Origin: a virus
Taxonomy: Duplodnaviria > Caudoviricetes
Virus record (IMG/VR): IMGVR_UViG_3300025087_000034
DNA length: 64,000 nt
Strand: one strand, 5' to 3'
Shown one piece after another: positions 14,198 through 49,437 of the stretch (its first letter is position 1; every line of letters starts with the position of its first letter). Both the position numbers and the translations under genes were made by a program. The notes below the pieces were generated by a model. It was not told where the DNA came from. It ran no database searches and worked only from the letters and a program-made list of their open reading frames with translations.

Positions 14198-17100
14198 ATG
14201 GCTAACTTGACTAGGGTAGCCAGCAATGTTTGTATTTATTGGTTGACCCATGAAAATAGCCCTTCTGTAGTTTTAGAGGGTAGCCCTGGTCGTTGTCATG
14301 CCTATACCTATTTTTCCCCTGCCAGAATTTCTTGCTATAATAAGGGTAAATGTAATGGGTCGGGCACTTGTAGAAATTGTTCTGCATATGACGTCGGCGG
14401 GCTAAAAATATCTCATAAAGATACCCAACAAGTTTATACGGATCATTTTTTACAAGTTTGGAATGATGAACAAAATAAATATTTACCAGTAAGAAGTCTT
14501 ACGGCAGATGAAGCAAGTGATATTTCTCATTTTATTAATACCCTTACCCACGGGGAACAGGTTTCTTCTTCCAATTATAGTGGTTTACAAGTTCCTATAA
14601 ACTTATCTATATATAATTTAAGGGCGTCTTTTAAGAAGTGTTGTAATTGGACAACTCAACCGGTTGTTTTTGAGAAAAGTAGGGGCGGCATTCTATATGC
14701 GGTTATCTATAGTAGTTCGTTTAAAATAACAGTACCTTATTTAGCTACAAATACTAAGGGGGAGTATACTAATATAGGTAGTATAGCCTCTTTTTGTAAG
14801 TTAAGTGCTGTAACTCTTCCTTGGCTAACTCCTTTTACTGAACAAAATCCATACGCTTATGGTTGTAACGGCTGTAAGCCGGAGTGTCCTTATTATACGG
14901 GGCCTCTATGGACGTATTGTAGAGATGGTAGAATGGAGTTAGGGGATAGGATTTCTGCTTCACAAGTATTAGAGCTTAGATACTATAGTGACGATTGGGC
15001 TTCTATGGAGGCTCCTAAGATTGAGTGGAATAAGAGATTTAAGAGTCCTGATATATGGGCCTGGACAGGTGGTTTTCAGGGCATAGAGGCTGGAGCGGAC
15101 ATAGATTTAGACGCTAAACCTATGGTTAAGAGGGTTCATATAGATAATTTTAGTACAAAAGAGCCCCTTATAGTTATAGACCCACCCGTAGAAACTAGTA
15201 ATGGTTTAGTCGTTAACAATTTTGTTGACGATGAAATAGTTCCCACAGTTTCTTATCCTACCCTTATACAAGAGTTGTCCGATGTAGCTAGGACTATAAA
15301 AATAGCCTGGCCAAAGGCCCCAGCTACAAGCCCCTATGTTTATAGGACATTTAGACAAGGTCAAAATATTATTCGTATATTTGTGGAGACCCCCCACTAT
15401 TCTAATGTAGTTGCTATCAATATAACAAAATACCCCCAAGGAAGCTTTTCAGATAAAGATTTTTTGGACTATATGCAGGGAAATTTTCCTGATGATGTTA
15501 TACCTTACTATTCTACCACAACTGCTAATGATCTTATATATTTTGATGTTCCTTTAGTTTACAAGGGGGGGTCTCAATTTATAGAGGCAGTTCCTGGTTT
15601 AAATGTTATAAAGGTTTTTGTTCCAGACTTAAGGGGGGAGACTGGCAAATACCTAACTGTTAGTGCTTATATAAAACATAAATTTTATCATGCTATGTTA
15701 GCTCAAACCAGAGGGGATGATTTATCTGGCCACCAAGAAATGCATCCATGGGTGGATAGGTTTGAGCATGTTGAGTTAGAGGCTAAGATTATGAAGTTGG
15801 TTAACTATCCTCGTGTGCATAAGGTATTGTGGGATACACATGCAGGAGGAAAGCTAACTACATATCAAATAGAAGAGGTTATAGAAGATGAGCTACAGGT
15901 AGATTGGGACCCTATTTACTGTAATTTGGTTGCAATAAATTTCTTAGACGGTAGGTGTAATTGTGTTACACCCTGGTTGTTGTCTGGTACTTCTACTTAT
16001 GGTGTACCATTAAGGGTCTATGTAGACAGGACGGAAAATGCTAAGGCTACAGAAGGCATTGTGCAATTAGAGGTCTATTATAAGTCATCTAATGGTCAAT
16101 ATCTACAAGGAAATGTAGTTATTGCTGGCCCTGTTAGTGGTACTAGTCTTAGTTCCAGTTTGGACCCTTTGACAGATAAGATATATGCTACGTACTCTGT
16201 TACGGAGTATAAGCAGGGCCCGGTTCTTTCACAAGATGTATCCAAGCTTAAATACCCAGATTTACTAGCTAATTATATAGATGAAATGCCTATAGAGGTT
16301 TCATATAACGAGGAGGGAGATACCTTTTCTGTTTCTGGTACATTTGTGAAGCTTTCTGGTCCAAACTCTTTAGATAAAGTTTATAATTTAGAAGACCATA
16401 AGAATCGTGTATATAGGGAGTTAGTGGGGCAGGAGGGTATTTCTCTTTATAGTTTTAGGAACGGTGGTTTAGAGGATGGGAGTATAAAAGCCTCTAGCCA
16501 AATTTTTGAGTCAGAGGGGGCTTATTTAGAAAACTCTTACGCAGGTAATGTGTTTTCTAGTGACGGTACTCCGTTTTCTTTGTCTAGACTATGCGAAAAA
16601 TTGTCCGAAGTTAGGCTGCACGAAGGCAGCTATACGTTTACGGTTATGTTTAAGGACGAGGATGGAAGATTAATCGGTATTAAGCGCATAAGCTTGCTTG
16701 TGCAGTCTGCTTTTGCAGAGACTAGGGACGTGGAAATAAAATATAAGTGGAGCATGGCTACTAGGGAATGGCCTATAGTAGACTCGATGCTTTTATTGGC
16801 AAAATATAATGAGCCTATAATAGCGTCGTCTCCAGAGGGCAGTATTAATTATAGCCCTATGTGTGGGGACCATTCTGAAACCATGGGCAGTAGGCATTTT
16901 TTTGGTGATCCTGGCCCAATGTGGTACCCATATTCTAGGTGTTTAGACCCAAAGTATGATAACACCAGCTATACTGATGAGGTTAAATGTAAAAATTATG
17001 TAGAGGGGTTTAGTTCGCAAACCTCTGGTAAAAGGTGGTCTTACTGGGAGAGAATGAGGGGCCCTGATAAGTTCTATACTTGGAATGCTGGTGGTATATA

Positions 17101-19765: not shown

Positions 19766-22700
19766 TGCGAGTACTTCCAAATATAGTTAATATACTTAAA
19801 AATGCGAGTATTAGAAACTGTGTGTCGTGTATGCACGATAACAAGAAAGGCTACTCTGTTGTTTGGAATACCAACAATGATTTAAATGGTTATTCATCTG
19901 TGGGGGGTGTCGTTTCACATACTGTTTGGGACGGTGTTTATTTTGGCGTTTCTGTTTCTGGTTCTTGTTATATAGAAAGCCCAGATACTCTTGATATAAA
20001 TGGTTCATACTATACACAGTTTAAAGCAGACTATAGGGTTGATTCTGGTAACAAAATAGTATCATCGTTATCTGGTAAGGTGCAGTTTAAGACTAATAGG
20101 GAACAGTATTGGTCAGAAGAAAAGTCTCTATATTTTGATGCTTATACAGATAATGCCTATCACGAGCATGTTGTTGATATGTCTATGCATGCTAAGTGGA
20201 ATGGCACTATAACCGCTTTAAGGTTCTACCCGTTTATCGATGGTGTAAGTGGTTTAAAATTTCATTTACGTGAGTTAGGGGTAGATTCTAGTAATAGGTA
20301 TTATTGTGATACAGGTAGTAGCGATGATGTTTGTGATAAGTATTTTGAGTACTCACACCCCTGTCCTTGGACAGGCAGTCCCGGGTACGCCTTAGCCAGT
20401 ACTGTAACGGGCACACTAACTATATACGAAGGTGTGAATGATACCTTATTGGTTGACATAGATGACTATGGATATCACTCTGTTAAAATAGGATCTGGGG
20501 TTAATAGGGAACTTAGTAGTATAGCTTGCGATATAGAGGAGAAGTTGAACTTAATTGGTGTTGGTGGGTACGCATATGCTAGGTGTTATGTAGATGAAAG
20601 CAGGTTAATAGTAGAGTCTGATTGGCGGAATAGTTCTTCTAGGGTAGTAATAGGTGTTCCAGAAGAGGGCTCTGCTTGTGTCGTCCTAGGTTTTTTTGGT
20701 GCCACAGGCGCTCCTTTATATACTAGTTTTTATGGTACAGATAAGGCTAGTGGGTACGAGGCTCCTTCTGTCCTAGTCTCTCCGTCCTCTTTGTCTTATT
20801 TAAAAAGCGCGGATAGGTCTAGTGCCGAAAGTTCTTTTAGTATTACTGGAAATGACTATTCTGTTTATGGGGGGAATAAGGATTATAAAAATTTTTCGCG
20901 CGACACAAAAATAATCTTTAGAAATCAAACTATAATAGACTACTGTAATCCTATAATAAGAACAGGAAAATTAAAGTTTTTAGGGTACAGTGGGGATAGG
21001 TATAACAATACAGAATTAAGAATATATAGAGAAAAAGTTGACGGTTCAATTTCTTTAGTAGGAAGTGTTTCTGTTCCTAGCTCTGCTGATGAGCTTGATA
21101 GGGTTTTTGAACTTGATATAGACCTTGACGTAAAGAAGGGTGACTTGGTTTCTTTATATAGTGCGGGTTTGCATTTAGGGGCAGAGACAGAAAAAGGGGA
21201 CTTTTCGTACTATCTTTATGATTATGACCTAGGAAGCCTTAACGAACACGTGGAGTATTTATCTGGAGCAGGGGAGGCGGGGCTACCCTTATATGTCAGG
21301 GGGTCTAGAGTAGCCTCTGAGGCTGTTATAGACATCATTTTTGATGAGGTTTTACCTGTGGAGTCTCTGGTTGTGTCTGCGGAGCACGAAGGCGTGTCTG
21401 AAGATATAAACCTGTGCACCTTGAGGGCAGGTGGTAACAATGGGGGGCCTTATTTAACTGGCTATACTGGTTTAGACATAGAGGGCAACCAGGCCCCCAC
21501 TTTAGTTAATATTGATTCTATAATAGACGGGGTTAAGCAGGACGTTAATACTGTTTCCACTTATTGTTACCCAGGCTGGCTAGATTTAGGACTTCCTGCC
21601 CAGGAAGATTATTATTATACTCCTTTTAGTGTGGCCATAGATTTCATTAAGGGTATAGATGTATTTTTTGATGTTTATAAGATAAAGCTTTATTTTGTAG
21701 ATAAGAAAAACATAAAGAGCTTTAGAATAGAGGTACCCTTTAGTTTTGATGCTAATGATGAAAACAAAATATGGGGGATAGGGTTTCCTACTTATAATGA
21801 AGTCTATACAGAGCTTGGGTTGATGGATAGTGAATATATCTATCTCTATAATAATCCAGCTATATTAGTTGCAAATGATTATCAGGTAGCTTACTCGCAT
21901 CTTGATTATAGGTATTTAGAGTTAGTTTTGGAGCCATATAAAACGAAGGCGATTCGCTATAATGCTTCTTTAGAGGGGTATTTTGTAGAGGACCCCCTAC
22001 AGTTAGACTACTCTGGTTTTCCTATAGCGCCAAGCCCAAAAATTCAAGAAATAGAAGTATATGCCAAGTCTATACCTGAGAATAGCATATCATCATATTT
22101 TAGTGTAGAGACCTCTAAAGATGGCACCATATATTTGGGGCATAATGACATAGACACAGTGTCTTCAACACGGGCTTCTTATACTGTGGGTAGGCCAACA
22201 AGATATTTAAGATTAAATATAAAGGCGAAAACACCCCTTAAGGTTTTTGATATTTATGGTATCTTAAGTGAGGGTCTTGTTGAACTTAATTCTAACAATT
22301 CACATTGTTTGAGTTTAAACCCGCCCCTAGATTTACCTGGGTCTTCTGTAGAAAAGGTAACTGTAACCAATGACAGTAGTAGTGTGTCCGATTTTTATGT
22401 AGATATATTGGAAGATAGGTCTTCAAGAGAGCTTTGTGTATTATGGAATAAGCTAGATTCAGATACTAGTGTCCAATATAGCGAGATTGGGCCGGGGGGT
22501 ATTGTTCATCGTAGACAGCCTTTTTATCTTAGAGCATATAACTATGCTTATAGGTGTCCAGGATATTTTTTGGATAAGTATTTTTTACGTGATACTAACT
22601 CTTATCTTAGCCAGGATGGAGGGCTTTCTTGGTCTAATATTGGTACTATTGTAACTGATGGCCAGAACTCTACTTATATAACAAATGAATACGAGTTGTA

Positions 22701-24795
22701 TCATCAGTATAACACCATGTATGTGGCGATTCCTCTAGGGGATAGGTATAATGTAAGCGGTGTTTCTTTTGAGGCCCCTGTTGATGCACCTGTTTTTGAC
22801 GGTTCTGTTTTATACTCTGATTTAGATACTACTAATCCAGGCTCTATACCATTTGAGGTCGGTGTACCACATGCTTGGTCTGTTTCTTATTCTGTTTCTG
22901 CTAGGTGGGTTTTAGTTCAGGTTGTTGGTACATATATAGGAAATCCAAACGCTAAATATTTATCTAACGTTGGTGTTTCTCTTAATTTGTCTAGTATAAC
23001 AAATAGGGGAAAGCTTCCTTGGGTTTCCGCCGGCGGGTATCTTACAAATGGGGTGTCAGGGTATGTAGGGGACGAAGGTGAGGTTGCCGAGGGGTGGATA
23101 AGCGATGGAGAGGCAGAATACTTTTGTGTGGACCTGCAATGGTTTCATAATGTTTCTAATGTTATTGTCGGTCCGTTTGGTGCCCTAATTAGTAGCGTTG
23201 ATGATATCGATTCTGTGGTCGCGGGTGAGTGGCCTAGTATTGTAGACGAGAACGGTACCGGTATAAACGTTGCATACTCCTCGTCCCCTGTTAATGAGCC
23301 TAGCAAGGTTACCTGGGGTTCTTTTGGCGGGGCTCCTCCTATGGATACTAAGTGGGTGTTGGTTAAGACTGCTACCAGAGTGGAGGAGATTATTGTCCAT
23401 GTAAATAGCAACGACCAGGGTACAAAGAAGCCTTTTCTTAATAGCTCTTGGTGTAGTTGTACTACGTTGGTTCCTTACACAGATGTTGTGAATACTCGTT
23501 CCAATGGTGTATCTGTGGGGGTTGTGTGTCCAGGGGGCCATGGACTTATGGAAACCTTTAGTTTGAAACAAAGTTTTGGCATAGACGCGGAATTATCCCC
23601 TAGGGATTCCCTAGTCTTTTGGTTCTATGTTTCAGATGTTTCTGAACTGGATTTTTCTGTTGGGTACTTTAGGGTTGGTAGGTCTGTTACACAGGATAAT
23701 AGCCCTATAGATATAAACTTAACTTCCGACACTAATTCTTATTATGAGTGGCCTTTGTCTTTATTGGGGAGTTCTTTGTTAGACGGGTGGAATGTTGTTA
23801 ACTTACCATTTTCTGATAACTACAGGGTTGGGGACCTATACTTTACTAGGGATGACAGGGCCAGGTCTGGGTATACAAATAAAAGGGACAGAATAATCTA
23901 TATAGACTTAGTTTTTTCTGGTGTTTCTGACAACGATGAATTTACAATTCTGTTTGATGACTTTAGAATTGCTAGGAGGTATTATTCTAGCGGGGAATTT
24001 GGGTATGGGGTGTATATTCCGTATCAAGAGCACATAAAGTTTCCGTTGGGAGATTTTGACCCAACAAAAGGTACCATAGAGTTTTATTTGAAGTCAGATT
24101 GGAATCGTACTGTTTTGTGTAACTCGTGTGATTCTCCTGTTGACCATTCTCTGCTTAGAGTTTTTAGTTCTGAAGATTCTTCACTGTTTTTTCTATATGC
24201 TTCACAGGACGGGCTTTGTTTTTATGTGACAGACGGATCCAGGGAGTTTGTGTTGTCTGACAATTCTTTGAATGGGTTTCTTTCCGATACTCCTGTTCAT
24301 ATTGCTATAGTGTGGGACTTTGGTAGTAGGTACGGTAATATAGCTTCTGGTATTTATGTTAATAATATTCTTAACACTTATTTAAATTATTCTTATTTAT
24401 ATACTGTGGGTGAGTTGCCTATATTTTCGCAGAGGTCGTCTTATAGTTTGATTCTTGGTGGTCGTGGCACAGAAATGTTGGTTTCTTCTATGGGGTCTTC
24501 TGCAGACTCTGTTTTTGAGAACATAAAGGTTTATAACTACCCTATTTTTGACCATTCTTATTCTATGTCTAACCAGGGGGTTCTTATACCTAAAAGATCA
24601 CATGAGTTAGTGGAAGTTTCTCTAGACGGGGTAAATTTTATGGATTATTCAGATAGAGGGAATGGAATTCCTTTGGTTGTAGAAAACGTCAGTGTGGGTT
24701 CTTCTTTTGATGTTTTTGTTAGGGCTAAGGATATAAGTTTGACTAGAGAAAAACAATTTAATAGAAAAAGTACCCTTTCAATTTCGAGGTCTTAG
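19765..24795 (+). CDS. Large putative virion protein (1676 aa): N-terminal carbohydrate-binding jelly-roll, C-terminal LamG/ConA-like domain
   Basis: GTG start overlaps the upstream TAG (TAGTG). N-terminal KWNGTITALRFYP. C-terminal FDPTKGTIEFYLKSDW...PVHIAIVWD...IYVNN...FENIKVYNYP. Confidence 0.6.
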   Translation: MRVLPNIVNILKNASIRNCVSCMHDNKKGYSVVWNTNNDLNGYSSVGGVVSHTVWDGVYFGVSVSGSCYIESPDTLDINGSYYTQFKADYRVDSGNKIVSSLSGKVQFKTNREQYWSEEKSLYFDAYTDNAYHEHVVDMSMHAKWNGTITALRFYPFIDGVSGLKFHLRELGVDSSNRYYCDTGSSDDVCDKYFEYSHPCPWTGSPGYALASTVTGTLTIYEGVNDTLLVDIDDYGYHSVKIGSGVNRELSSIACDIEEKLNLIGVGGYAYARCYVDESRLIVESDWRNSSSRVVIGVPEEGSACVVLGFFGATGAPLYTSFYGTDKASGYEAPSVLVSPSSLSYLKSADRSSAESSFSITGNDYSVYGGNKDYKNFSRDTKIIFRNQTIIDYCNPIIRTGKLKFLGYSGDRYNNTELRIYREKVDGSISLVGSVSVPSSADELDRVFELDIDLDVKKGDLVSLYSAGLHLGAETEKGDFSYYLYDYDLGSLNEHVEYLSGAGEAGLPLYVRGSRVASEAVIDIIFDEVLPVESLVVSAEHEGVSEDINLCTLRAGGNNGGPYLTGYTGLDIEGNQAPTLVNIDSIIDGVKQDVNTVSTYCYPGWLDLGLPAQEDYYYTPFSVAIDFIKGIDVFFDVYKIKLYFVDKKNIKSFRIEVPFSFDANDENKIWGIGFPTYNEVYTELGLMDSEYIYLYNNPAILVANDYQVAYSHLDYRYLELVLEPYKTKAIRYNASLEGYFVEDPLQLDYSGFPIAPSPKIQEIEVYAKSIPENSISSYFSVETSKDGTIYLGHNDIDTVSSTRASYTVGRPTRYLRLNIKAKTPLKVFDIYGILSEGLVELNSNNSHCLSLNPPLDLPGSSVEKVTVTNDSSSVSDFYVDILEDRSSRELCVLWNKLDSDTSVQYSEIGPGGIVHRRQPFYLRAYNYAYRCPGYFLDKYFLRDTNSYLSQDGGLSWSNIGTIVTDGQNSTYITNEYELYHQYNTMYVAIPLGDRYNVSGVSFEAPVDAPVFDGSVLYSDLDTTNPGSIPFEVGVPHAWSVSYSVSARWVLVQVVGTYIGNPNAKYLSNVGVSLNLSSITNRGKLPWVSAGGYLTNGVSGYVGDEGEVAEGWISDGEAEYFCVDLQWFHNVSNVIVGPFGALISSVDDIDSVVAGEWPSIVDENGTGINVAYSSSPVNEPSKVTWGSFGGAPPMDTKWVLVKTATRVEEIIVHVNSNDQGTKKPFLNSSWCSCTTLVPYTDVVNTRSNGVSVGVVCPGGHGLMETFSLKQSFGIDAELSPRDSLVFWFYVSDVSELDFSVGYFRVGRSVTQDNSPIDINLTSDTNSYYEWPLSLLGSSLLDGWNVVNLPFSDNYRVGDLYFTRDDRARSGYTNKRDRIIYIDLVFSGVSDNDEFTILFDDFRIARRYYSSGEFGYGVYIPYQEHIKFPLGDFDPTKGTIEFYLKSDWNRTVLCNSCDSPVDHSLLRVFSSEDSSLFFLYASQDGLCFYVTDGSREFVLSDNSLNGFLSDTPVHIAIVWDFGSRYGNIASGIYVNNILNTYLNYSYLYTVGELPIFSQRSSYSLILGGRGTEMLVSSMGSSADSVFENIKVYNYPIFDHSYSMSNQGVLIPKRSHELVEVSLDGVNFMDYSDRGNGIPLVVENVSVGSSFDVFVRAKDISLTREKQFNRKSTLSISRS

Positions 24796-27700
24796 TGGTA
24801 AGCCAAACAGGTTATAACATAGTAAAGGAAGGAGACTTATATAATTCAGAGATTGCTACGTATTTTGTCTCTGTTTCTGGCTTAAGGTTTCTCTATGTTA
24901 ACCCATCAGAGGCGGTTTCGTTTGTAGTACCACAGGGCCGCGTATCCTCTTTAGACATAGTTTTTGGGGAATACTTTGATATAGACAATATAAAATGTTA
25001 CCTTTCTCCAATAAACTTGGGGGATATTAGTATAAGCTATGGCATCGAGTCTCCTTTAGAAAGCAGTGCTACAATATCTTCGTCCGGTACTTTTATTTAT
25101 GCAGATATAAAAAACGCCGTTGGTTTTTGTAGGATAACGTGCTCGGGTTCTGTTGACACCTCTGTTAGTAGCTTATTTGTTGAGGGTGTTCGTAACGAGT
25201 CTATGTATTTTGGTGTTCAGAATGCCCCTATCAGTATAACTAGTATAGGAAATTCCCCTATTGGGTATTATGGTTCTGCTTCTGAGATTTCTATATATAA
25301 TAAAGATAAGGCGTCCTCAAAGGCCCTGGTAGCCGTTGCTCCTACAGGGACCTATATAGATGAGTATTTGTATTTGGGGACTACCTCTTCTGGTCAGTTC
25401 TATGGTATAAACCAGCTGGGTATAACACAGCCTTCTTTTGATAAAATATTGACTACTCAGGATAGTTTCGTCTATTCCGACGAGTCAGGCCTTGTGAATT
25501 TGTGGGACATTGTTTCCACCTCCAGCTCGTATTTTACTGTAAATTCCGACAGCCTGTCTTTTGTGGCTTCTTTTATTAATGCCGATATACATGTGGCCAG
25601 GCCAGCTCATGGGTATAATGAGTCTAGTGTCTTAGGTTTAGTATGTAAGGATACTTTTACTACAGATCAAAGTTTTGTTGCCTCATTAAAGATAAAATTT
25701 ACTGATTCTTCTTTCGATTCTTATGATAAGTCTTGGGTTTATAAACCTAATAAATTTTTATTTGGTTTTACTAATAGCTTTCCTATTCAGGAGCCCTTGC
25801 TATCCTACTCGTCTTTAGACCAGGGGTCGTATTCTAGACAGGGAGGAAGTTTAGCCGCTGTTTGGGTTGGTGCTGACAATAAAGAGCAGGGTACCCTATA
25901 TGTTGGCGCGGCTGCTAATGATGGGGATTTTTCTAGTAATAATATACTTAGTTCTTTTGATGAAGTAAGAACTGTTCATAATGGTCACAGTATACTCTCT
26001 GCCTATAGTTTGGAAAGTATTTCTGAGTTTGTTCTTTATGAAGAAAATTATACAGACGGAACTTTGCAGGCTCCGTGGAGGACATTGAAGGTTTCGTATG
26101 ATCACCTTAGTGGCAAGGCAGTGTTCTTGTTCGACGGGGTTATTGTTGGGGAATATGTTTTTAGTTCCGGGTCTTTTTTTGAGGGTAGTAGGTTTTTCTT
26201 GTCTTTCGTGGGGTTTGGGGGTGCAGAAGTAGCGGTGAAGGATTTTTTTGTAAGCGTGGATGAGTACTTAACCTTGTATTCAAACCAGTCCTCTGCTACT
26301 GCCTATGGTTCTAAAGATAGCACACAACTACCGTACAAACTTGTGGATGGTTTTTATGACAATAGTAACTATAGCTCTGCTTGGGTTTCCTCTACGGTGC
26401 CCTCTCCTGCCAATTCTTTTTCTGTGTATTTTGGTGGTGTGTATAATGTAGAGGCTGTACGAATAAAGAGGGCCTCTGAAGGTAGCACCATTACTATTTC
26501 AGGCCTTTCTTCTTATACTCCTACGTCATCTGTAAAAACTTTGCAACTTAATTTTGACACAGGGGACCAGCGATACGTTTCTTTTAATAAGGAACCTTTT
26601 CTTATTGACGGGTGGGATATTGGTTATATGTATACAGTGTTCGGGGAAAGGTCTCCTGTTTTGGGGGCCTCATCTGTTACTGCTAATTTTTATCAGGTTA
26701 ATAGCCTAAGTGGTAATACTGGGTGTTTAGTTATAGACGAAGTAGAGTTTTTTACTGTTTCCGGTATTAGGTCGCTTCCATCTAGTAGTTATATAGATGA
26801 TAGTTATGGTTTTTTTTCCGGCCAAAAAAGAAATCTGTCTAAAACTTCTACCTCTCCAACTATGGTTATGGTAAGTAAAGATTTATACGATGTGTCTACT
26901 AATGAAATGTGCCATTTATTATTGGAGAATCGAGATTACGGGGGATCTTCTTTGGTATTTAACAATGACGACCCTTGGAAATATATAAATAGGACCTATG
27001 CAGAGTCTGTATTTAAGCGTGATGGAAGGGGCAGTGAGTGGGTGTTTTGTAGTGTAGAGGGCAATACAGCTTATATATGGAGACAGTTTGAGGAAGTTGT
27101 AGATTTAGGGGCCTTTTTTGTTAATTTTGTAAACTCTTCTAGTGATTATGGGTTGGGGTTTTCTGGAAGGCCCGATAGTTGGAAACTACAGTTTTTAAGA
27201 ATAGGAGGTGACCCGCTAACAGATAGTGACTGGATTAACATACCACCAGTTTCGACTTCGTATCACAGTGTCTCTGATTACAAAACCTATAGGGATAGGT
27301 TAGTTTCTAATAATGACGGAGAATACTATACTCTGTATTTGAACGCATTTGATGGTCTTGGCACAAGTGTGTCCCTTCCTTCGGATTTATTGTGTCGTCT
27401 TAATAGGGATAATAAGCAGACGTATTTATATAGTACAAGCGCAGAATTTTCTGCTTACGTCGAGTTTGATAGTGAGATAAGAACACAAGGTATTAGATTG
27501 TATATATCATATGGTTACACAACGACCAGCAGGGCAGTAGTTGCTTCGGGTTATTCTATGACAGGGTTTGTGGTTTATAGTAGCATGGCTGTTGGTTCGT
27601 ATACGTCCCCTATTTTTGATTTGGGTGGTAAACAAAATACGGAGAGGGTATTTGTTGATACTGTGCACAACGAAGGTAGCTCCTATATAATGTATAGGGC

Positions 27701-29927
27701 GGGGCCTGTTCCTCCAGAGTATAGTTATGATCCCAACTATGAGGAGTGGGAGGACCTGGGCTCTTCGTATGCCGGACTTTCTGAGTACTCTTCGGATCCT
27801 CTACGAGACGGCTTTGCTATGGTTTCTTATGGTAATTATATTTGTTTTATTGGTTGTACTAGCCCAGACGGTGAGGTGTATAGATATAATACCATTACTA
27901 AAAAGTGGGGAGTCGGTTTTTATATGCCAGAGGATGGTGGCGGCGTTGTATTGTCCCCTGATTTTAGAACAAGGAACAGTGTTGTTAACACAGGTTCCGT
28001 TATTCTTATGGCGGAAGGAACCGATGGTGGAGAGGGACTATATACTTCAGGTATTTATAAGTATAATCTAGTAGCTAATGAGTATGGGTATGATGGTTGG
28101 GAAGCTTTTCCTTCTCAACGTCAGGCCTCTGCATATTATGCGGGAATGGCCTATGACGGGGCTAACAAGTTGTATTTTGTTGGTAGGGATGGTACTATTA
28201 CTGTTTTTGATAGTCTTACTGGTGTAATAAATACAGAAGGAAGAGCAGAGGCGCCTCTTCATGGCCTTTCTTCTAGGGACTATTTTATACCAACTATTGT
28301 GGAAAATAGGCTGTTTGTTATAGGAGGCCATGCAGTAGGGTCTAGTGACTACTCTGATTCAGTAGCGACTGTAGATATTTATGATATCACAAATAACACT
28401 TGGTCTGAGGGTACGTCTGCTCCCTATAAACTCCCAACTTCTTGGTGTATTTTTTATAGTCCATATATATATGTTTTTCCATACGCACCTATGGGTTCTC
28501 ACTATAGCCCGTTCCTTAAATATGATATCTACGCGGACGAATGGACGGAGGTTGTTTCGTTGGGGTATAATCGTGCCACCCAGTTTCTTTATAATAATGA
28601 CGTGGTTGTTGGAAATAATCATTCACACGCATACTGTCTTTGTGGGGACTATATATATGGCTACAACTCTTTGTACGGGGATTTTAGAAGAGTAAAGGTT
28701 GGAAAGGAGGGGTGGGTTTCAGGGAAATTGCCGGATAAGGACTCTCATGAGTGGGGTGTTTTGGGTGGTATTCCTTGGGTAGAGTGTGCTATCAGTGGCG
28801 AAGTTATGCCTCAGGATAGGTATGCTCAATATAAAGCAGTGTTATCTTGTGAAGAGGGGTTACCAGGACCCTCCCTTAGATCTTCGTGTATTGTTAAGCC
28901 TCTTTCTATTGACGTTTCTATTAGTGGTACCACGAGTGTATTTGTAAAAACCGGAGTGTCCACTGAGTATGATGCAGAGGTTTGGTATGCTGGTAAGAGG
29001 TATAGGGACGTTGGTAGCACTACTGTATATTCCTCAATAATTTATGGTATTACTTCTGATAGTTTATCTATCAGTTCTTCTGTTCCTTGCGTAGATATAC
29101 ATACAGATACTATTTCTGGGGTTTTTTGTTATTTTGATCCTTGTGTTGTAAAAGAGGGGGACGATTATACTATGTGGGCTTCTCATGGTTTAGTAAACGG
29201 GGTAGCCACTATTTCCTATTCTAATATACATGTAATGTCTTCTGTGGTTGGGTACGAATGGTCTTCTCCTGTACATAGTATAGGAAGAGGTACTTTATCT
29301 CCGTATGATAGTAGCGGTGTTTATGGCCCCCACGTTGTGCACAATGATATATATGAGGTGTGGTATACGGCCCTTGATTCTTTGGGTGTAGAAAGGGTGC
29401 TAAGAGCCACTAGTATCGACGGTGTAAACTGGTATAATTTTTCACTGGTTCAGGATATTGGTACGGTAGGGCTTCAATATGAAGCAGACTCTAATGGCGC
29501 AGGCTCTCCTTCCGTTATTCTTTTGGAAAGCATATATCATATGTGGTATCATGGTAAGGATGTTTACGGGGTATACAGAATTATACATTGTGTTTCTTCA
29601 GATGGGGTGCTTTGGGGTGACCATGAGGTGGTTATGGTTCCAACAAGTATGGGTACATTGTATACGTACTGTATGAGTCCAAGGGTTGTATACGATAGGG
29701 GTGTGTATAAGATGTGGGTTATAGCTGGAAATGAGGGCAACAAAAGCGTGTATTATGGTGAGTCGGATGAGGGTTCTAGTTGGGGCAGTTTTATTTGTAG
29801 CATTCATAAGGGGGAGAACTATGACTACGACAACTTAGGGGTTGGTACCCCGTCTGTGACATTAAATAGACTATATGAGACACCAAATAGGGTTCTTTTT
29901 GGTAAGTTGAAGTTGTACAATGACTAA
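24795..29927 (+). CDS. Large putative virion protein (1710 aa) with kelch repeats and a C-terminal five-bladed (GH32/43/130-like) beta-propeller
   Basis: TAGTG overlap. Kelch-like YRYNTITKKW, VDIYDITNNTWS and KYDIYADEW. Blade repeats DPCVVKEGDDYTMW, GPHVVHNDIYEVWY, SPSVILLESIYHMWY and SPRVVYDRGVYKMW. Confidence 0.65.
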   Translation: MVSQTGYNIVKEGDLYNSEIATYFVSVSGLRFLYVNPSEAVSFVVPQGRVSSLDIVFGEYFDIDNIKCYLSPINLGDISISYGIESPLESSATISSSGTFIYADIKNAVGFCRITCSGSVDTSVSSLFVEGVRNESMYFGVQNAPISITSIGNSPIGYYGSASEISIYNKDKASSKALVAVAPTGTYIDEYLYLGTTSSGQFYGINQLGITQPSFDKILTTQDSFVYSDESGLVNLWDIVSTSSSYFTVNSDSLSFVASFINADIHVARPAHGYNESSVLGLVCKDTFTTDQSFVASLKIKFTDSSFDSYDKSWVYKPNKFLFGFTNSFPIQEPLLSYSSLDQGSYSRQGGSLAAVWVGADNKEQGTLYVGAAANDGDFSSNNILSSFDEVRTVHNGHSILSAYSLESISEFVLYEENYTDGTLQAPWRTLKVSYDHLSGKAVFLFDGVIVGEYVFSSGSFFEGSRFFLSFVGFGGAEVAVKDFFVSVDEYLTLYSNQSSATAYGSKDSTQLPYKLVDGFYDNSNYSSAWVSSTVPSPANSFSVYFGGVYNVEAVRIKRASEGSTITISGLSSYTPTSSVKTLQLNFDTGDQRYVSFNKEPFLIDGWDIGYMYTVFGERSPVLGASSVTANFYQVNSLSGNTGCLVIDEVEFFTVSGIRSLPSSSYIDDSYGFFSGQKRNLSKTSTSPTMVMVSKDLYDVSTNEMCHLLLENRDYGGSSLVFNNDDPWKYINRTYAESVFKRDGRGSEWVFCSVEGNTAYIWRQFEEVVDLGAFFVNFVNSSSDYGLGFSGRPDSWKLQFLRIGGDPLTDSDWINIPPVSTSYHSVSDYKTYRDRLVSNNDGEYYTLYLNAFDGLGTSVSLPSDLLCRLNRDNKQTYLYSTSAEFSAYVEFDSEIRTQGIRLYISYGYTTTSRAVVASGYSMTGFVVYSSMAVGSYTSPIFDLGGKQNTERVFVDTVHNEGSSYIMYRAGPVPPEYSYDPNYEEWEDLGSSYAGLSEYSSDPLRDGFAMVSYGNYICFIGCTSPDGEVYRYNTITKKWGVGFYMPEDGGGVVLSPDFRTRNSVVNTGSVILMAEGTDGGEGLYTSGIYKYNLVANEYGYDGWEAFPSQRQASAYYAGMAYDGANKLYFVGRDGTITVFDSLTGVINTEGRAEAPLHGLSSRDYFIPTIVENRLFVIGGHAVGSSDYSDSVATVDIYDITNNTWSEGTSAPYKLPTSWCIFYSPYIYVFPYAPMGSHYSPFLKYDIYADEWTEVVSLGYNRATQFLYNNDVVVGNNHSHAYCLCGDYIYGYNSLYGDFRRVKVGKEGWVSGKLPDKDSHEWGVLGGIPWVECAISGEVMPQDRYAQYKAVLSCEEGLPGPSLRSSCIVKPLSIDVSISGTTSVFVKTGVSTEYDAEVWYAGKRYRDVGSTTVYSSIIYGITSDSLSISSSVPCVDIHTDTISGVFCYFDPCVVKEGDDYTMWASHGLVNGVATISYSNIHVMSSVVGYEWSSPVHSIGRGTLSPYDSSGVYGPHVVHNDIYEVWYTALDSLGVERVLRATSIDGVNWYNFSLVQDIGTVGLQYEADSNGAGSPSVILLESIYHMWYHGKDVYGVYRIIHCVSSDGVLWGDHEVVMVPTSMGTLYTYCMSPRVVYDRGVYKMWVIAGNEGNKSVYYGESDEGSSWGSFICSIHKGENYDYDNLGVGTPSVTLNRLYETPNRVLFGKLKLYND

Positions 29928-32139
29928 TCGGCTATATGATACCTCATACGTAGATGGCAGGGGTAACCAGGTGGTGTGGTCTAACGATACTAAGTTAGTG
30001 TCCTACTATAGCTGTGAGGGAGAGTCGTGGGATATTTATGGGGGTACCTCTTCAAGTTGGTACTTAGAAAATTATAGGCCTACCGATTTTTTCTATTCTA
30101 CAGATTTGGCAGATGATAAGTGGTCATATTTTTCTTATAGAGGTACTATTTCTGGGTCTGTTTCTAGTGGTTTGACTTTGGGTACTTATGGAAAAGAGGT
30201 TAGAGGAGGTGTGACTTCCTACGGAAAGTGGACTCTTTCAGGAATATTTGATATAAGACTTTACATTGATGAAAATTCTTATTATAATGAATATAGGAGT
30301 AATGTAGCTGTTGGTCTATCTGTTTCTAAGGATAGTTCTTATAAATATAGGGTGTCTAAGTATTTTGATGGGTCTTCTATAGGAGCTATGTCTCATTATG
30401 TAGAGGGTAAAGAACTAAAATATTACTCTTGGTTCAACAACGGTTCTTTTGTTTCTACTGAGGCTGATTCAAGTGTATCTTGTTTGAGGATCGTTCGTGA
30501 TGCCTCGGGGGTGTCCTCCTATGTAGATTACGGGGGCGGTTTCGTACAGGTCGGTAGCACGGTATCTGGGTTATGCTGGGAGAAGCCTTTGTATGTGGAG
30601 TTGGAGTTGGAGGCTGAGCAGGCTAATACAGTAGTGTGTAGGGTTGAGGGGGTGTCTATAAGCGGGTCCGTTATCCCCTCAACTATGTTTTCCTCAAAAA
30701 TACGTGGGGTTACACAGTCTTTTCCTGGTGAGACTATTTTTGTTGTTGATTCTTTGGGCTTATCTGTGGTGGACTTGTCAGACTCCTCCCTTTGGATGAG
30801 GTTTGATTTGGATAGCGGCGCTATGTTTAGAGACGTTGATTGTAAAATTTCGGCGGGGGAAGGAAAAATTTATTATACTTCCACACAAGGACTTAATTGC
30901 ATAGATTTTTCAAATGATACTTTTTATAGGTATATAAAAGGAAAGAAACAAACTAGTAGTTATTGTATAGTAGAAAGAAATTTTGATACAATTTTGTACG
31001 ATTCTATTAGTATGGATTTGCTTCCAGACAATCAGGTTAACGACGTATTTTTTAGGAAGTTTAATGGTACAGACTATTTAGCGGTCACTACTGTTAGTGG
31101 TTTGGATATACTAGTAGATGATTTTTCAGTATATAGTAGTTTAAATAGAAATGAAAATATATCAAATGTTTTTATTTCCCCCGCTGGGAAATTATTGTGG
31201 TCTTCTTATAGCCAGGACTCCAATACAGGAAAACTCTATGCTTTAGATGACATATCTGCTATACTTACTGGTGGTGGGGTGTTCAATTATTCAGTTTTTT
31301 ATGATTCTGATACTACCCCTATTTCCCTATCTTCTGAGAAAATAAATTCTATATTCTGTTCTATTGAGGGGGAGATAGTTTTAGCAAATGAGTTTGGAAT
31401 AGATTATATAAATAATAGTGGGTCAGTTTCTTTTGGCCCAATTAACTCTATTAATCCCTTAAGCAGCCCTTCTTTTGAATCGTTTTTAGGGGTTGATTGG
31501 CACTTGCTTTACTCTTCTGTTTTACCAAAGCCCCTGGTTTCCGTTTCTAGGTCTTCTTCTTGGAAAACTAATGGTAGTTATAGCTTAAAGCTTTCTTCTA
31601 TTAGTGGCGGTTACTATGTTTCTAATTATAGTGGTGGTGTTTATCAACAGGTAGATTTTTCATTAATAGATAAATTATATTTCGATATTAAGGTTGTGAA
31701 TACTACTGGTATTACCTCTAATATAGGGGTGTTTGAGGTTCTTTGTGGTGGGTCTGTTTTATTGTCTGTTAATAGTATAGAAGGCTCCTTTATAAAGTAT
31801 AATTATTCGATAGATTGTTCTTCTATTAATTCTGTAGGTCAGCTGGTATTTAGACTTAGATATCTTACTTCTATTGCAGGTGTTGGGGAACTTTCTTATT
31901 ATGTTGATAACGTAAGGGTATTTATAAAGGAACCAGACTATAATATAATACCAACTAGAACACATGAGGTTTTATCTGCAACTTTATTTGAAGCTTTAGG
32001 CCAGAAAAAGATATATTTTTCTTGTAAAGATGGTTACGGAGCAATAGATGTAGATACAAATACGCTAGACTACTACACATATATTAATGATTTTGTACAG
32101 GGTGGTATTATAAATAAAGCTGAGTATGCTATAGGATAA
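29920..32139 (+). CDS. Putative virion protein (739 aa) with a beta-propeller-like module shared with 33280..39453
   Basis: FPGETIFVVDSLGLSVVDLSDSSLWMRF matches FPTQVYVVVDTEGLSVINAADNTLWMRF in the downstream giant ORF. Confidence 0.55.
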   Translation: MTNRLYDTSYVDGRGNQVVWSNDTKLVSYYSCEGESWDIYGGTSSSWYLENYRPTDFFYSTDLADDKWSYFSYRGTISGSVSSGLTLGTYGKEVRGGVTSYGKWTLSGIFDIRLYIDENSYYNEYRSNVAVGLSVSKDSSYKYRVSKYFDGSSIGAMSHYVEGKELKYYSWFNNGSFVSTEADSSVSCLRIVRDASGVSSYVDYGGGFVQVGSTVSGLCWEKPLYVELELEAEQANTVVCRVEGVSISGSVIPSTMFSSKIRGVTQSFPGETIFVVDSLGLSVVDLSDSSLWMRFDLDSGAMFRDVDCKISAGEGKIYYTSTQGLNCIDFSNDTFYRYIKGKKQTSSYCIVERNFDTILYDSISMDLLPDNQVNDVFFRKFNGTDYLAVTTVSGLDILVDDFSVYSSLNRNENISNVFISPAGKLLWSSYSQDSNTGKLYALDDISAILTGGGVFNYSVFYDSDTTPISLSSEKINSIFCSIEGEIVLANEFGIDYINNSGSVSFGPINSINPLSSPSFESFLGVDWHLLYSSVLPKPLVSVSRSSSWKTNGSYSLKLSSISGGYYVSNYSGGVYQQVDFSLIDKLYFDIKVVNTTGITSNIGVFEVLCGGSVLLSVNSIEGSFIKYNYSIDCSSINSVGQLVFRLRYLTSIAGVGELSYYVDNVRVFIKEPDYNIIPTRTHEVLSATLFEALGQKKIYFSCKDGYGAIDVDTNTLDYYTYINDFVQGGIINKAEYAIG

Positions 32140-32141
32140 CA

Positions 32142-33272
32142 ATGTCTTATACACTTACAGGAAACATAACAGGGATTTTAGGTATTACTAATATTGTTTC
32201 TAGTGATTTAACTTATATGTCCGATGGCGATAAGTATGTTAACGGGCCCACGATTTCTGTAGGAGAGACAGCGGAATTTATTATAGATTTGTATAATAGG
32301 TATTATACGTTGGGGGTGTATTATTATTATAGTGGTGGGGGTGTGGTTTCTATGTATGTTGAGGAGTCTTTTGGTTATTGGGTACAAGTTTTTCCGTCTG
32401 TTATTCTTGGTGGTTTATTTATTGGTCTTACGGGTGTTTATCCTAAAAGAGTAAAGGTTGTGCACTTGGCTTCTTTGAGTCTTGTTACTGCACATGAGTT
32501 ACAAATATATAATAAAGATACTCTACTGGTTTTTGATTTTGATAAGGTAGCTTTAGATTCAAGTGGTGTTTTAGATACTATGGTTTCTGTATATAATAGT
32601 AGCACTGGTGTTAAAGATATAAATGTATTTGTTTCTGAGGGGAGCGGGGTAGAAAGTGTAGCCCTTTCTTATTCTGGGTCCGGCCCCTATTATTTTAGAT
32701 ATGAAAAGGGTTTAATACTACCCGGGGCTTTTTCTTGGGATAGTGGGAGACATATTAATACTGTGGTTAGTGGCACAAACCTTACTATTTCAGGGGTCTC
32801 TGTTAGTGGTACCTACTATAGCCCTGTTGTTGATTTGTATGGCTATAGTGGATACAGGGTTTTTTGGGATGAATTTTTACCAGACGGTGATTTTATAGGT
32901 TTTATAGATAACAGTGGAAGCGAGAGGTGTATTGGGGTTAGGTCTTCATATATTGCTCCAGTAGAGGGTTGGTCTAGTGGGTCGTTGGCTTCTGAGTCAG
33001 ACCCGTTTTGGAGCATTGCGGATGGGTCTCTAAATTTTTTGGCGGCGCCGAAAGAGATCATAATAGCAGATGATATAAATAGGTATTCCCAATTTTGTAT
33101 AACAATTACAGGATCAATAACGAACAAACCATATATAAAAAAGGCAGGTTTTGAAACACCCATAACGATATCTGGTGTTCAACCAAGCACTTATGCAAAT
33201 ATATATATTCGTAATAATGAAGATACCTCTGGAAAAACAGCTGGTATCATAACATGGTATACAGAACAATAG
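32142..33272 (+). CDS. Putative virion protein (376 aa)
   Basis: Beta-rich composition. The SGTYYSPVVDL motif resembles VGSYTSPIFDL in 24795..29927. Confidence 0.5.
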   Translation: MSYTLTGNITGILGITNIVSSDLTYMSDGDKYVNGPTISVGETAEFIIDLYNRYYTLGVYYYYSGGGVVSMYVEESFGYWVQVFPSVILGGLFIGLTGVYPKRVKVVHLASLSLVTAHELQIYNKDTLLVFDFDKVALDSSGVLDTMVSVYNSSTGVKDINVFVSEGSGVESVALSYSGSGPYYFRYEKGLILPGAFSWDSGRHINTVVSGTNLTISGVSVSGTYYSPVVDLYGYSGYRVFWDEFLPDGDFIGFIDNSGSERCIGVRSSYIAPVEGWSSGSLASESDPFWSIADGSLNFLAAPKEIIIADDINRYSQFCITITGSITNKPYIKKAGFETPITISGVQPSTYANIYIRNNEDTSGKTAGIITWYTEQ

Positions 33273-33279
33273 GTACTCA

Positions 33280-36200
33280 ATGTCAAGTTTAGACACTATT
33301 TTAAATATAGATTCTACCTATACAGATATTAACGGTAATTACATCCTTAATTCCGATGTAGTCACTTCTGTCTCAAACTATAATTCTACTGTTACTGGTA
33401 CAGAAAATGCATGGGACCATAAATGGAATGTAGCTAGTCCTTTTATAAATAGTAGTTTTTCTTTACCAACCAGTGGTACTTGGACTTATGGCACGGATGA
33501 TTCTGCTACTCCGTATAAACACAATTTTTTTAGGATGCCATGGATAGGCGAGACAGATTTGTTATCAGGTAAGTCTGTCACAAGTAGTGGGTATTCAGGG
33601 AGTTTTGATGCTCCTAACTTAGTAGTTTTTAATAGTGCTAATGGTTGGTGGACTGCAAATAAGACTGAGTATGTTAATGCGGTTATAGTAGACATGGGGG
33701 TTGTAAGTAGTATATCTCATATTTGTGTTATACCTGGGTTTGGTACAGATTATACAAATTGGGTTAAGAACTATAGGGTGGGAGTATCTAATACTATTAA
33801 TTATTGGGATTTTGAAATAGTAGCCAGCGGTATTACTACTAGTGGGGTTTTAGAGCCAATACAGGTGTTTCTGGGTGAAGATAGCACTCGGTATGTTAAG
33901 TTTTACGCAGATACAAATTGGGGGGGTGCTTCCTATATTTCTGTTGGAAAGTTACATGCTTATGACAATCCTACCTGGGGGGTGTTTGGGTATAAAGAGA
34001 AGGACCAAGTTGATGGTAGTTATGCTTTAATGTACCAATCTGTAGATTTAACAGAAATTGACACTGTTTATATTGATTTATTGTCTTTGATGTCAAGTGC
34101 AATACAAGATGGTACAATTTCTTTTTATGTAGATTCCAATCAAGTGGGCAGTACCCTTAGTTACTCTTCTACATTAGCTTGGGTGGATTCGGAAGATGGA
34201 AATAGGTGGAAGTATAGAGAATATCCAGTCGATGTTTCTGCTTATAGTGGGATTAGACAGTTTAAGGTTCAATTTAACACAACCAGGTCTGATAACACTA
34301 GGGCTTATTTTTATTTTTCCGCTTCAAATTTAGCTACTATGCCACGATGGTTTTATGAGGGGGTATCTGGTGTCAGGGGTTTGACCGCAGAGTTTCCTAC
34401 TCAGGTGTATGTTGTTGTTGATACCGAGGGTTTGTCCGTAATAAATGCGGCCGACAACACATTATGGATGAGGTTTTTGATTGGGTATGGCTATGCATTG
34501 GGGGAGGCTCCTGTTTCTGTGTGTGCTAGTAACGGTAAAGTTTGGGCTGCTACTAGTAAGGGGTTATATAGAATAGATTTCATTGATAACAGAGTTTATC
34601 GGTATAATAGTGCTGGTGTTTATTATAGGCCATCAATAGCTGCCAGAAATGAATATTCAAAGTGGTTTTTGTTAAATACAGATGTAGCTACTCCCTCGGA
34701 CTTTATAAGGTGTGTTGCTTGTGGCACCTATTTAGGCGACGAGTTTATTATAGCAGGTACTTCTGATGGTTTGTATTTTTTGAAGGACCCTTTTATAGGG
34801 GTGTCAGGGGCGTATAATTCTGTATATAAATGGAATATAAATAGTGTCTCAATAAATAATGGCAAGGTTGCTGTCTCTGTTGATGGTGGAACAAGTTCTA
34901 GGATTATTTACTATGATAGTATAGCCGCCTTATTGTCAGAAAATTTTGTTGTTGGTAATGAGGTTTTTTCTAACGATAGTCTGCCTATAAATTTTAGTCT
35001 TTCCGGGTCTTTACCTGAACAATTGTCTTCTATACGGTGTGGTGAGTTAGAGTTTTTACCTAATGGCGCCCATTTTACCGTTTCAGGTACCAAGGTTTTA
35101 CCTGGTTCTGTCAGTTTGGTTTCAAACAGGTATCCTTCTAGACCCTTTGATTTGTACGCTGACGTAAGGATAGATGACTGGGTAAGTCGTTGTGGAGGGG
35201 GTTTACATTTAGGGGCAGGTACTGGGTGGCCCTATTCGTTAGATTCTTATTATAGTGGGCATAGAAATAGCTATTCAGTTTCAGCGTCCAACTTAACATT
35301 CATGCCTGTTATACAAAATGACCCCTTGGTAGATAATATATATGACAGGTGGTCAAAAAATATTTCTACTAATACTACCTCTATGTTGTTGTCTGTTAGC
35401 GGTACTAGGTTTTATGGTTACACTTCAAGTAGCAGTACGGGTTCTCAATATGGCCCCCTTGTTGGTAGTTATCTTTCCCTAGCTAGTCCTTCGTCGTTTA
35501 CTGCTAGGGTAAAGGTTTGTATCAATAGTATGCCAACAGGAATTACTGCTGGTAGGTTTAAATCTGTATTGTTTGGTGTCAGTAATGGTAGCGGTGGTTC
35601 TACAAGTACGGTTTCTACTGCCATGGCTTTTACTTATCACACTTCTGATATAAATCCTGCTGCTTATAATACTATAGCTCAATCGGCTATAAATACGTGG
35701 ACTCCGAATACCATCAATACTGTGGCGGCTTTTTCTGGGGATGGTACTGGTGCTGCAGTTTTTCATCAATGGGAATTTACTTATAACAGTTCTACTGGTT
35801 TATTTTCTTGTAGTGTTGATGGTACACATATAAGAACATTTACAAATTCTGTTGGTTCTAATGTTTATATTGTGTTTGGATTTAAAGAGAGTGATAATTC
35901 TGTCCAAAATGTATCTTCTTATTTTAAAGATTTTGAGATAGATTTTGGTTATCCATCAGACAACATTAGTAGAAAATATATACTAGCCACTCATAATTCT
36001 GCCGGCGGGATTAAACCCACGGTTAGTGGTGGTACGCATCTAGATGGTGTACAATTTGATACCATAGACGGTACCGCTCTAGCGGAATGGCGAACTTGGC
36101 GACTTTCTTATGACGGTAGTAATGTTTCTAGTTATGTAGATGGAGCTTTGGTGGGGGGCCCTACGGGAGTTTCTTTTGGTAGTTTTGTAAACTTTTTCGT

Positions 36201-49399: not shown

Positions 49400-49411
49400 T
49401 CTCTTATTTTC

Positions 49412-49425
49412 GCGGCGAAAGCCGC
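49412..49425 (+). other. GC hairpin with GAAA tetraloop just upstream of the primase RBS
   Basis: GCGGC-GAAA-GCCGC, preceded by TTTTC and not followed by a U-tract. Confidence 0.55.
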
Positions 49426-49437
49426 ACAAGAGGTAAA

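Follow-up and report, generated by a model that had tools for sequence, protein, structure and literature searches.

What sets apart the points in a phage genome behind which the coding strand abruptly changes its base composition? The question is raised by a stretch of 64,000 nucleotides (nt) from a virus of the Caudoviricetes (Duplodnaviria; IMG/VR record IMGVR_UViG_3300025087_000034), hereafter the window, in which copies of a short word, made of a T-run, a G/C-only core of 6-12 nt and an A-run, are followed on their 3' side by an A-rich and G-poor tract. The window has a coding share of 98% with all genes on the + strand, and this strand, called T/G-rich in the first-pass annotation of the sequence, has A 28%, C 15%, G 24% and T 33% (third codon positions T 46%, A 24%); cumulative GC skew climbs monotonically over the window. 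The same annotation had reported, from seven hand counts, that the strand flips from T-rich to A-rich at the sites of the word. All seven counts are exact: 9 A and 21 T at 32941-33000, followed by 26 and 19 at 33061-33120 and 24 and 14 at 33121-33180; 9 A and 23 T at 20761-20820, followed by 23 and 17 at 20941-21000 and 27 and 19 at 21001-21060; and 25 A and 10 T at 10201-10260.

The flip at the motif copies is confirmed. All motif statistics given here derive from 16 sites in this single window, namely nine strict copies, found by a regular expression alone, and seven looser copies, most of which had been named in the first-pass annotation. The skew shift, defined as downstream minus upstream AT skew over 200 nt with the motif and 15 nt on either side left out, averages +0.23 and is positive at 15 of the 16 copies (z 6.0 relative to random positions). 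The choice of loose sites was in part made by a reader aware of the flip, and the strict set by itself gives the same result (+0.18, 8/9 positive, p ~1.5e-4).

Several kinds of control sequence lack this behavior. The comparison with the other G/C runs of the window, 155 in number, reveals no flip, and neither do CpG-rich G/C runs devoid of T/A flanks (n=28), which rejects the GC core alone as the cause. Pairs of T4+ and A4+ runs with a non-GC spacer (n=27) likewise show none (-0.03 to -0.04), thus ruling out an autocorrelation artefact of demanding both a T-run and an A-run, and pairs in the order A..T (n=36) give a shift of -0.02. Chance words of the same make-up (T-S-A, S being the G/C-only core) were also considered: 26 of them in ~1 Mb of distantly related phage contigs have a downstream G content of ~0.24 and an AT-skew shift of only +0.09, and those in other IMG/VR loci show no consistent flip. 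Conversely, when the most A-rich and G-poor 100-nt segments of the window are ranked, 12 of the top 21 begin at most 65 nt 3' of a motif copy, and all eight of those that lie in the T-rich virion half follow one. Two of the three strongest segments, 50058-50160 in the primase gene and 53267-53370 in the RuvC-like gene, have no motif upstream; a sigma-70-like match (11/12) is located at 50125-50153, inside the first of them.

Whether such a flip is a property of the nucleic acid or of the encoded proteins can be read from the codons. At third codon positions, where the first-pass annotation had proposed to look, the flip is strongest, with AT skew passing from -0.39 upstream to +0.08 downstream (z 6.0), and over +-100 nt codon positions 1 and 2 reach z 1.4 and 2.4, respectively. 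If the amino acid of every codon is held fixed and region-specific codon usage is taken as the expectation, the counts over the 100 nt that follow the word are 229 A-ending codons where 132 are expected (z 11), 36 G-ending codons where 88 are (z -7) and 196 T-ending codons where 228 are (z -3.5), and the upstream bins are not significant. The excess of A is found in the strict (z 8.5) and the loose set (z 8.7) and is individually visible at 15 of the 16 sites. Because it persists with amino acids held fixed, amino-acid composition, which according to the first-pass annotation would have refuted the observation, cannot account for the flip; the flip is present at synonymous sites and therefore represents a nucleic-acid-level signal. 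In the 33 codons downstream of the word I, K, N, T, E and Q are in fact enriched and G, A, V, S and R reduced, as a side effect of amino-acid composition or an inserted segment might produce, yet the effect is largest at silent sites, and chance is opposed by the lack of a flip in five kinds of control. Together with the insertion of an A-rich mobile segment, to which we return with the orthologues, these explanations appear highly improbable.

What, then, is the shape of the compositional domain? Against a local null (+-3 kb), the interval from +16 to +115 after the word rises in A from 0.28 to 0.41 (z 9.6) and falls in G from 0.24 to 0.15 (z -7.0), with GC dropping from 0.39 to 0.29 (|z| 7-10 for A, G and GC) and T slightly lower. 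On the 5' side T rises from 0.33 to 0.37 (z ~3) and C declines from 0.15 to 0.12 (z ~-2.5). In the silent-site test nothing is significant over -135 to -16, and the sole upstream signal lies at -75 to -16, where T is at 1.12 and C at 0.66 times its expectation (z ~2.4). The dyad-symmetric domain envisaged in the first-pass annotation is thus not what is found: the anomaly lies almost wholly 3' of the word, with a faint mirror on the 5' side, and the domain is a one-sided A-rich, G-poor tract of low GC content.

Its extent was followed by assigning each codon to its nearest site only. Silent-site A stands at 1.7-1.8 times its expectation out to +135, then at 1.4, 1.2-1.3 and 1.1-1.2, forming a tail to about 600-800 nt, and is back at 1.0 beyond ~850 nt; silent-site G recovers with distance through 0.20, 0.35, 0.59, 0.63, 0.72, 0.75, 0.81 and 0.87. 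Viewed site by site, the tract looks like a block of rather constant size, measuring 80-160 nt at most copies and more at 33041, 52878 and 48208, with two to four consecutive 40-nt bins in which A exceeds G by 20-40%. The skew change from T-rich to A-rich is real as described, but its nature is a gain of A and not a loss of T. In four-fold boxes A increases from 0.22 to 0.46, T decreases from 0.50 to 0.39, G from 0.16 to 0.08 and C from 0.12 to 0.07; in two-fold pairs A/(A+G) moves from 0.48 to 0.80, and ATA among Ile codons goes from 0.54 to 0.83. The ratio T/(T+C) is constant at 0.78. As T, G and C all give way to A while this ratio holds, the flip is a pull toward A on the sense strand, neither T loss nor a simple G-to-A shift.

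These features bear on a DNA-level model put forward in the first-pass annotation, according to which a dyad-symmetric T/A domain positions a translocase, a loader or a DNA-wrapping protein; in the form considered here the loader is that of a helicase, and the AT-rich side would serve for unwinding. The GC content next to the word, down to 0.26-0.29, would suit such a role, and so would the core, which stands as an isolated GC island because the dinucleotides CG and GC are further depleted within the tract (0.41 and 0.58, compared with genome-wide values of 0.62 and 0.90); the window also carries DnaB, DnaG, RecA-like and clamp-like genes. The domain is asymmetric, however, and the A it has gained consists of dispersed single bases (340 vs 274 expected), with runs of at least three A slightly under expectation and no periodicity of 10-11 nt. 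The directional poly(dT)/poly(dA) flanks that this model foresaw are accordingly not supported, and phased A-tracts or curvature were rejected on the same grounds. Moreover, a property of the duplex would not make four-fold sites prefer A to T, 16 sites in 64 kb are far too many for replication origins, and the skew change, from T-rich to A-rich on a G/T-rich strand, is opposite in sign to that of an origin. We regard this model as very doubtful. A replication origin with an unwinding element was likewise rejected, despite the AT-rich side (GC 0.29), in view of the 16 copies, the monotonic GC skew and the opposite local sign.

The word itself is equally directional. Runs of at least six G/C-only bases are rare (175 in the window), and the word is the subset preceded by a T-run and followed by an A-run. 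The regular expression finds nine copies in the order T-S-A, one each as A-S-T and T-S-T, and no A-S-A, at a density of 0.14 T-S-A words per kb, where distant relatives (1 Mb) have ~0.026; it is therefore a conserved, over-represented and orientation-specific short word, as a promoter word should be. In the core-aligned copies T occupies positions -1 to -5 and A positions +1 to +5 in 11-15 of the 16, and A is frequent at -6 to -9, so that the word reads roughly AAATTTTT / core / AAAAA; the T-run is sharply bounded, with AAA before it. Past the A-run no position-specific signal is detected in the 16 aligned copies, except for a T at +14 in 10 of them. At 11/16 copies the word forms a weak hairpin or none (0 to -5 kcal/mol).

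In the 15 coding copies, only one copy being intergenic, the reading frame of the word is constant (xxT TTT Tsg, G/C-only codons, xxA AAA), with two G/C-only codons in 13 of the 15. The encoded peptide has the form F-[SL]-[AG]-[AG]-x-K, with an in-frame AAA (Lys) in 11/15; Arg-Arg is never used and Pro-Pro at 1792 alone, which is explained most simply if the constant frame is the least harmful one, avoiding Arg and Pro. Two translational roles of the word were rejected. For a programmed -1 frameshift, the in-frame heptamer A AAT TTT is seen by eye in only 4/15 coding copies, the -1 frame closes 0-23 codons on and no downstream structure is predicted; all alternative frames at the word close within the same distance. 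For internal translation starts, also judged by eye, the ATG after core 8535 is out of frame and meets a stop within nine codons.

A short-core word, TTTCGCCGAAAAA, lies at 13376-13388 just ahead of gene 13435; AT skew across it passes from -0.32 to +0.12 without depletion of G, and the word may belong to the family as a weak member. Short-core copies, of which the window has only three, show no G depletion and were set aside.

How did word and tract arise? The comparative evidence consists of proteins, apart from one orthologous DNA fragment of 1.9 kb (L001). For the proteins an amino-acid score was used, the A-minus-G content of the first two codon positions, which is an indirect proxy for the presence of the motif in an orthologue. 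In DnaB the word overlies the residues ILAARPK, and over the following 45 codons 14 homologues are colinear and the sequence is conserved; close relatives share 54-74% identity with the DnaB of the window. At this site L001 (57% identity) reads GTA GTT GCT GCA AGA CCT AAA and has no word, and its third-position A over the next 45 codons is 0.40 versus 0.56 in the window. The ORF (open reading frame) 7847-10360, which contains four copies, has 13 colinear orthologues (41-48% identity) without the word at all four sites. At 9202 these read I[ST]ITGDKN, at 9382 NFYPEVG where the window has NFLPAVG, and at another place F[TQ]NEL where the window has FSAALK. Residues that are near-invariant among the 13 have been overwritten in the tract of the window, for example ASITGIAPWEDL -> ASINIVEPWLNI.

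The score of the 40 residues after the word is 0.68 in the window against 0.09 +-0.10 in the orthologues at 9382 (z 5.7) and 0.51 against 0.13 +-0.07 at 10125 (z 5.3); 8535 has a minor shift (z 1.5) and 9202 none. Over the 40 residues preceding the word, window and orthologues do not differ at any of these four sites. At 33041 the closest orthologue (56% identity) has NFSPAAKE, a different peptide that follows the same logic of T-run, G/C codons and A-run, and its score after the word is intermediate (0.31, compared with 0.46 in the window), with four more distant orthologues having neither word nor shift (mean ~-0.01). These comparisons show that word and tract were gained together, in place, within conserved protein segments, and that both can persist among close relatives. 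The insertion of a mobile segment, including in-frame mobile palindromes of the Rickettsia RPE type, finds no room here: the six sites tested (DnaB, the four in ORF 7847-10360, and 33041) are all colinear, and the tracts resemble one another no more than shuffled sequences do (pairwise score 17.8 vs 17.3), having nothing in common beyond base content.

A search for DnaB in viral, metagenome and genome contigs returned relatives of at most 41% identity besides L001, no close relative was found among GenBank phages, and an exact 43-mer search of viral contigs gave no match. The first 50 kb of Flavobacterium phage immuto contain no copy of the word, and a pattern scan of viral contigs for TTTTCGGCGG..AAAA yielded single chance matches only, without tracts.

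The reading that we rank first, while giving it somewhat less than even chances, is that word and tract form a transcription-polar unit: a duplex docking word, then an A-rich, structure-poor initial transcript. In such a unit, the word, (AA)TTTTT / 6-12 nt CG-rich core / AAAAA, and the next 120-135 nt would be read as one in the direction shared by every gene of the window. In the DNA duplex, the word would most likely dock a phage-specific transcription factor or polymerase, and the tract would be the first RNA made from it, or the DNA that has to open there; selection would hold it A-rich, G-poor and low in GC, yielding a nearly structure-free transcript and an easily melting duplex. We infer that transcription sets the polarity of the tract and that selection, not mutation, maintains it.

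This tentative reading is placed first in view of the strand-specific bias, the block-like domain, a modest enrichment ahead of gene starts, and A-rich stretches that reach these starts; the joint gain of word and tract seen in the orthologue comparison is also counted in its favour. The copy at 48204-48223 is a perfect palindrome with a tract on its 3' side only, and because a palindromic word cannot choose a side, a directional process must set the polarity; nor is the A-pull purely a duplex property, because AT-richness would not favour A over T. For seven of the 16 copies the next gene start follows 24-330 nt downstream (~3.6 expected), and at 10125, 33041, 52878 and 59549 the A-rich stretch extends about as far as this start. 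Over the 200 nt before a start, third-position AT skew is +0.01 to +0.17 if a motif lies at most 450 nt upstream and -0.17 to -0.13 if none does. Predicted RNA folding per 100 nt is weaker in the tract (-11.6 kcal/mol) than upstream (-18.2) or at random places (-17.3).

Several observations weigh against a launch of transcription at the word. No -10-like box or start signal occurs at a fixed distance after it in the 16 copies, and sigma-70-like matches in the tracts are sporadic. Nine of the 16 copies are located in the interior of long ORFs, with no gene start closer than 500 nt; four copies cluster in a single gene, and the enrichment ahead of gene starts is weak in the window (~p 0.05). Composition accounts fully for the low RNA structure (folding z against shuffles -0.5, like controls), and selection on RNA structure beyond base content was therefore dropped. 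Furthermore, the polarity of transcription is inseparable from that of replication or of the genome axis, because the window has no minus-strand genes and GC skew points in the same direction. Finally, the graded tail of 600-800 nt and the faint 5' mirror suit a stochastic DNA process at least equally well.

Such a process is the main rival, and a rather unlikely one in our estimate: polar DNA repair or gap filling, anchored at the word, would have left the tract as its mutational footprint. A rightward-moving replisome would stall at the word, where a protein is bound or a structure has formed, or the word would be nicked; the minus strand just past it would be left single-stranded and refilled by an error-prone polymerase; and cytosine deamination together with 'A-rule' insertion would enrich A on the plus strand, fading with distance. 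The graded silent-site profile, with an A excess gone only beyond ~850 nt, has this form, and A is gained from all three other bases with G most depleted, as deamination and non-instructed A insertion predict. The faint 5' mirror (T up, C down over 75 nt) looks as if a minority of events ran leftwards, the overwriting of near-invariant residues would be expected of mutation, and the monotonic cumulative GC skew fits one dominant fork direction. Single-site profiles, however, are blocks of ~120 nt and not smooth exponentials, and the sharply bounded T-run, preceded by AAA, indicates that the word itself is no saturated endpoint of a gradient. Mutation pressure that dominates composition should also erode the word and DnaB, but the DnaB segment is colinear and conserved and has undergone a silent shift only. 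With the same limited confidence, the tract may be seen as the scar of an undescribed polar DNA transaction that starts at each word and inserts A non-instructively over ~100-800 nt. This transaction might be a re-priming of the leading strand beyond a word with bound protein, or a resection directed by a nick and followed by refilling; we know of no process that starts at the word.

If the A-rich segment, single-stranded and adjoining a GC-rich word, acted in the RNA independently of start sites, it could be a landing pad for an RNA-binding protein such as ribosomal protein S1, RNase E or a phage Hfq/Sm-like protein. The A-pull is specific to the sense strand, as a signal in the RNA would be, and the tract is predicted to be poor in structure. 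The distal face of Hfq prefers A-R-N triplets, which arise automatically from an A at position 3 before a purine-rich position 1. The 64-aa ORF 54666-54860, possibly a phage Sm/Hfq-like protein judging from its sequence, matches Hfq of Pfam only weakly (E 2.7e-4, 20.9 bits) and stays under the threshold of 27 bits. Against this proposal, which we consider quite unlikely, stand this sub-threshold assignment, the lack of a sequence word common to the tracts, the weak or absent word hairpins noted above, and the fact that nothing links the tracts to regulated genes.

Two further element classes involving secondary structure were tested. A Rho-independent terminator was rejected, as the core is followed by an A-run and not a T-run on both strands, with the weak hairpins described at 11/16 copies. 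A long imperfect hairpin or cruciform was dropped because the arms on the two sides of the word have no specific complementarity (cognate -28.9 vs swapped -26.9 +-6.2 kcal/mol), their pairing being no better than base content gives.

Known systems resemble the unit in part. The T4 origins oriF and oriG combine a middle promoter with an AT-rich unwinding element, and T5 promoters of the N25 type have an A/T-rich initial transcribed region; in both phages these downstream regions are non-coding, measure 20-50 nt and affect the subsequent behavior of polymerase or transcript. The window shares with them a short duplex word followed, along transcription, by an AT-rich and easily opened stretch. 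It differs in that the tract comprises 120-135 nt plus a tail, is written into silent sites of coding sequence, has no -10-like box and often lies deep in genes. The 5' regions and coding starts of bacterial mRNAs are A-rich, G-poor and weakly folded over ~30-40 nt around start codons, and so have the same base bias, sense-strand specificity, use of silent sites and lower predicted folding; the tract, in contrast, follows a DNA word, exceeds 120 nt and is mostly remote from start codons, and the gene starts of the window without a motif show a weak version only of the A-rich bias. In vertebrate mitochondrial DNA, gradients of strand composition reflect the time spent single-stranded. They share with the tract a graded silent-site bias that weakens away from a fixed point and has a polarity along the DNA, but extend over kilobases and not ~100-800 nt, and involve G/C or C-to-T changes as opposed to a change of all bases to A. 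Compared with silent-site skew saw-teeth pinned at ACGGCCGT or at HIP1 palindromes, the flip, which occurs at 15/16 copies and relaxes within ~600-850 nt, is a one-sided A-pull without a G/C saw-tooth.

A literature search found no description of this word-plus-tract pattern, and we know of no account from a phage of a dispersed word coupled to ~120 nt of directional silent-site rewriting, here strong enough to overwrite conserved residues. If word and tract are a promoter with its launch tract, transcription units of uncultured jumbo phages could be mapped from sequence alone, and the tract would illustrate the reach of transcript-level selection in reshaping coding sequence. If the tract is a mutational scar, it marks the start and extent of a site-specific DNA process whose study would then require nothing but sequence. 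In either case, analyses of codon usage and selection in such genomes must mask the tracts.

Copies of the word with their tracts in the window (A and G, synonymous A- and G-ending codons observed vs expected)
Feature	Span	Strand	Core	Remarks
Loose copy, weak A-rich tract	1792..1935	+	1792-1800	A 13 vs 8; 299 nt ahead of next gene start
Loose copy, A-rich/G-poor tract	8535..8680	+	8535-8543	within ORF 7847-10360; A 22 vs 11, G 0 vs 5
Strict copy, tract	9195..9345	+	9202-9209	A 18 vs 7, G 0 vs 5
Loose copy (no A-run), strong tract ~160 nt	9376..9550	+	9382-9389
Strict copy, tract	10120..10300	+	10125-10133	next gene start 250 nt on
Loose copy (no T-run), tract	14395..14540	+	14395-14402	A 15 vs 8, G 2 vs 8
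Loose copy, tract ~120 nt	20892..21040	+	20897-20902	within 1676-aa ORF; A 19 vs 10; one of two worked examples of the first-pass annotation
Strict copy, weak tract	26810..26960	+	26818-26823	A 10 vs 7
Loose copy, tract	30848..30990	+	30851-30859	A 15 vs 8, G 2 vs 6
Strict copy, long tract	33035..33330	+	33041-33050	tract reaches next gene start (33280); largest flip of the window (+0.49)
Strict copy, tract	45175..45330	+	45181-45189	25 nt into ORF 45156-45731
Strict copy, perfect 20-nt palindrome, tract	48204..48350	+	48208-48219	over DnaB Walker-A approach; from silent changes A 21 vs 12 (z 3.3), G 2 vs 8
Regular-expression match without tract	49407..49429	+		intergenic TTTT + GCGGC-GAAA-GCCGC hairpin; A 10 vs 10
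Loose copy, strongest tract of the window	52878..53020	+	52878-52885	top-ranked A-minus-G segment; tract extends into RuvC-like gene (start 52997)
Strict copy, tract	59541..59690	+	59549-59556	A 22 vs 10 (z 5.2), G 0 vs 7; next gene start 181 nt downstream
Strict copy, weak tract	60023..60170	+	60028-60037	A 13 vs 9

The one match without a tract, at 49411, differs from the other copies in all respects and is probably a different element, a separate 5' stem-loop: its hairpin (49407-49437; -9.5 kcal/mol) has a GNRA loop and lies 9 nt before the start of the primase gene, just 5' of its Shine-Dalgarno sequence. Two motif copies of ORF 7847-10360 have in common, at 9210-9222 and 10135-10147, a 13-nt extension, AAAAAATTCATAT, encoding KNSY[QY]F; the orthologues likewise read KNSY/NYxF at the first of these positions, and the extension may be an internal protein repeat.

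The genes around these sites comprise giant virion-type ORFs and a replication block with clamp-like, RecA-like, DnaB, DnaG-type primase, PD-(D/E)XK nuclease and RuvC-like genes; the block further contains GIY-YIG endonucleases, a glycosyltransferase cluster and a TnpB gene. Genes in the style of Bacteroidota, without Shine-Dalgarno sequences, were considered and dropped, 20 of 44 starts having a Shine-Dalgarno-like site. The large ORFs 2095-5172 and 5184-7838 both have a C-terminal Ig-like domain of the Big_1/invasin type, with matches (E 7e-8 and 3e-7) just under the Pfam cutoff. Within the replication block, the two GIY-YIG genes (51323-52159 and 54860-55606), one with three NUMOD3 motifs and the other with an HTH_psq tail, are likely homing endonucleases.

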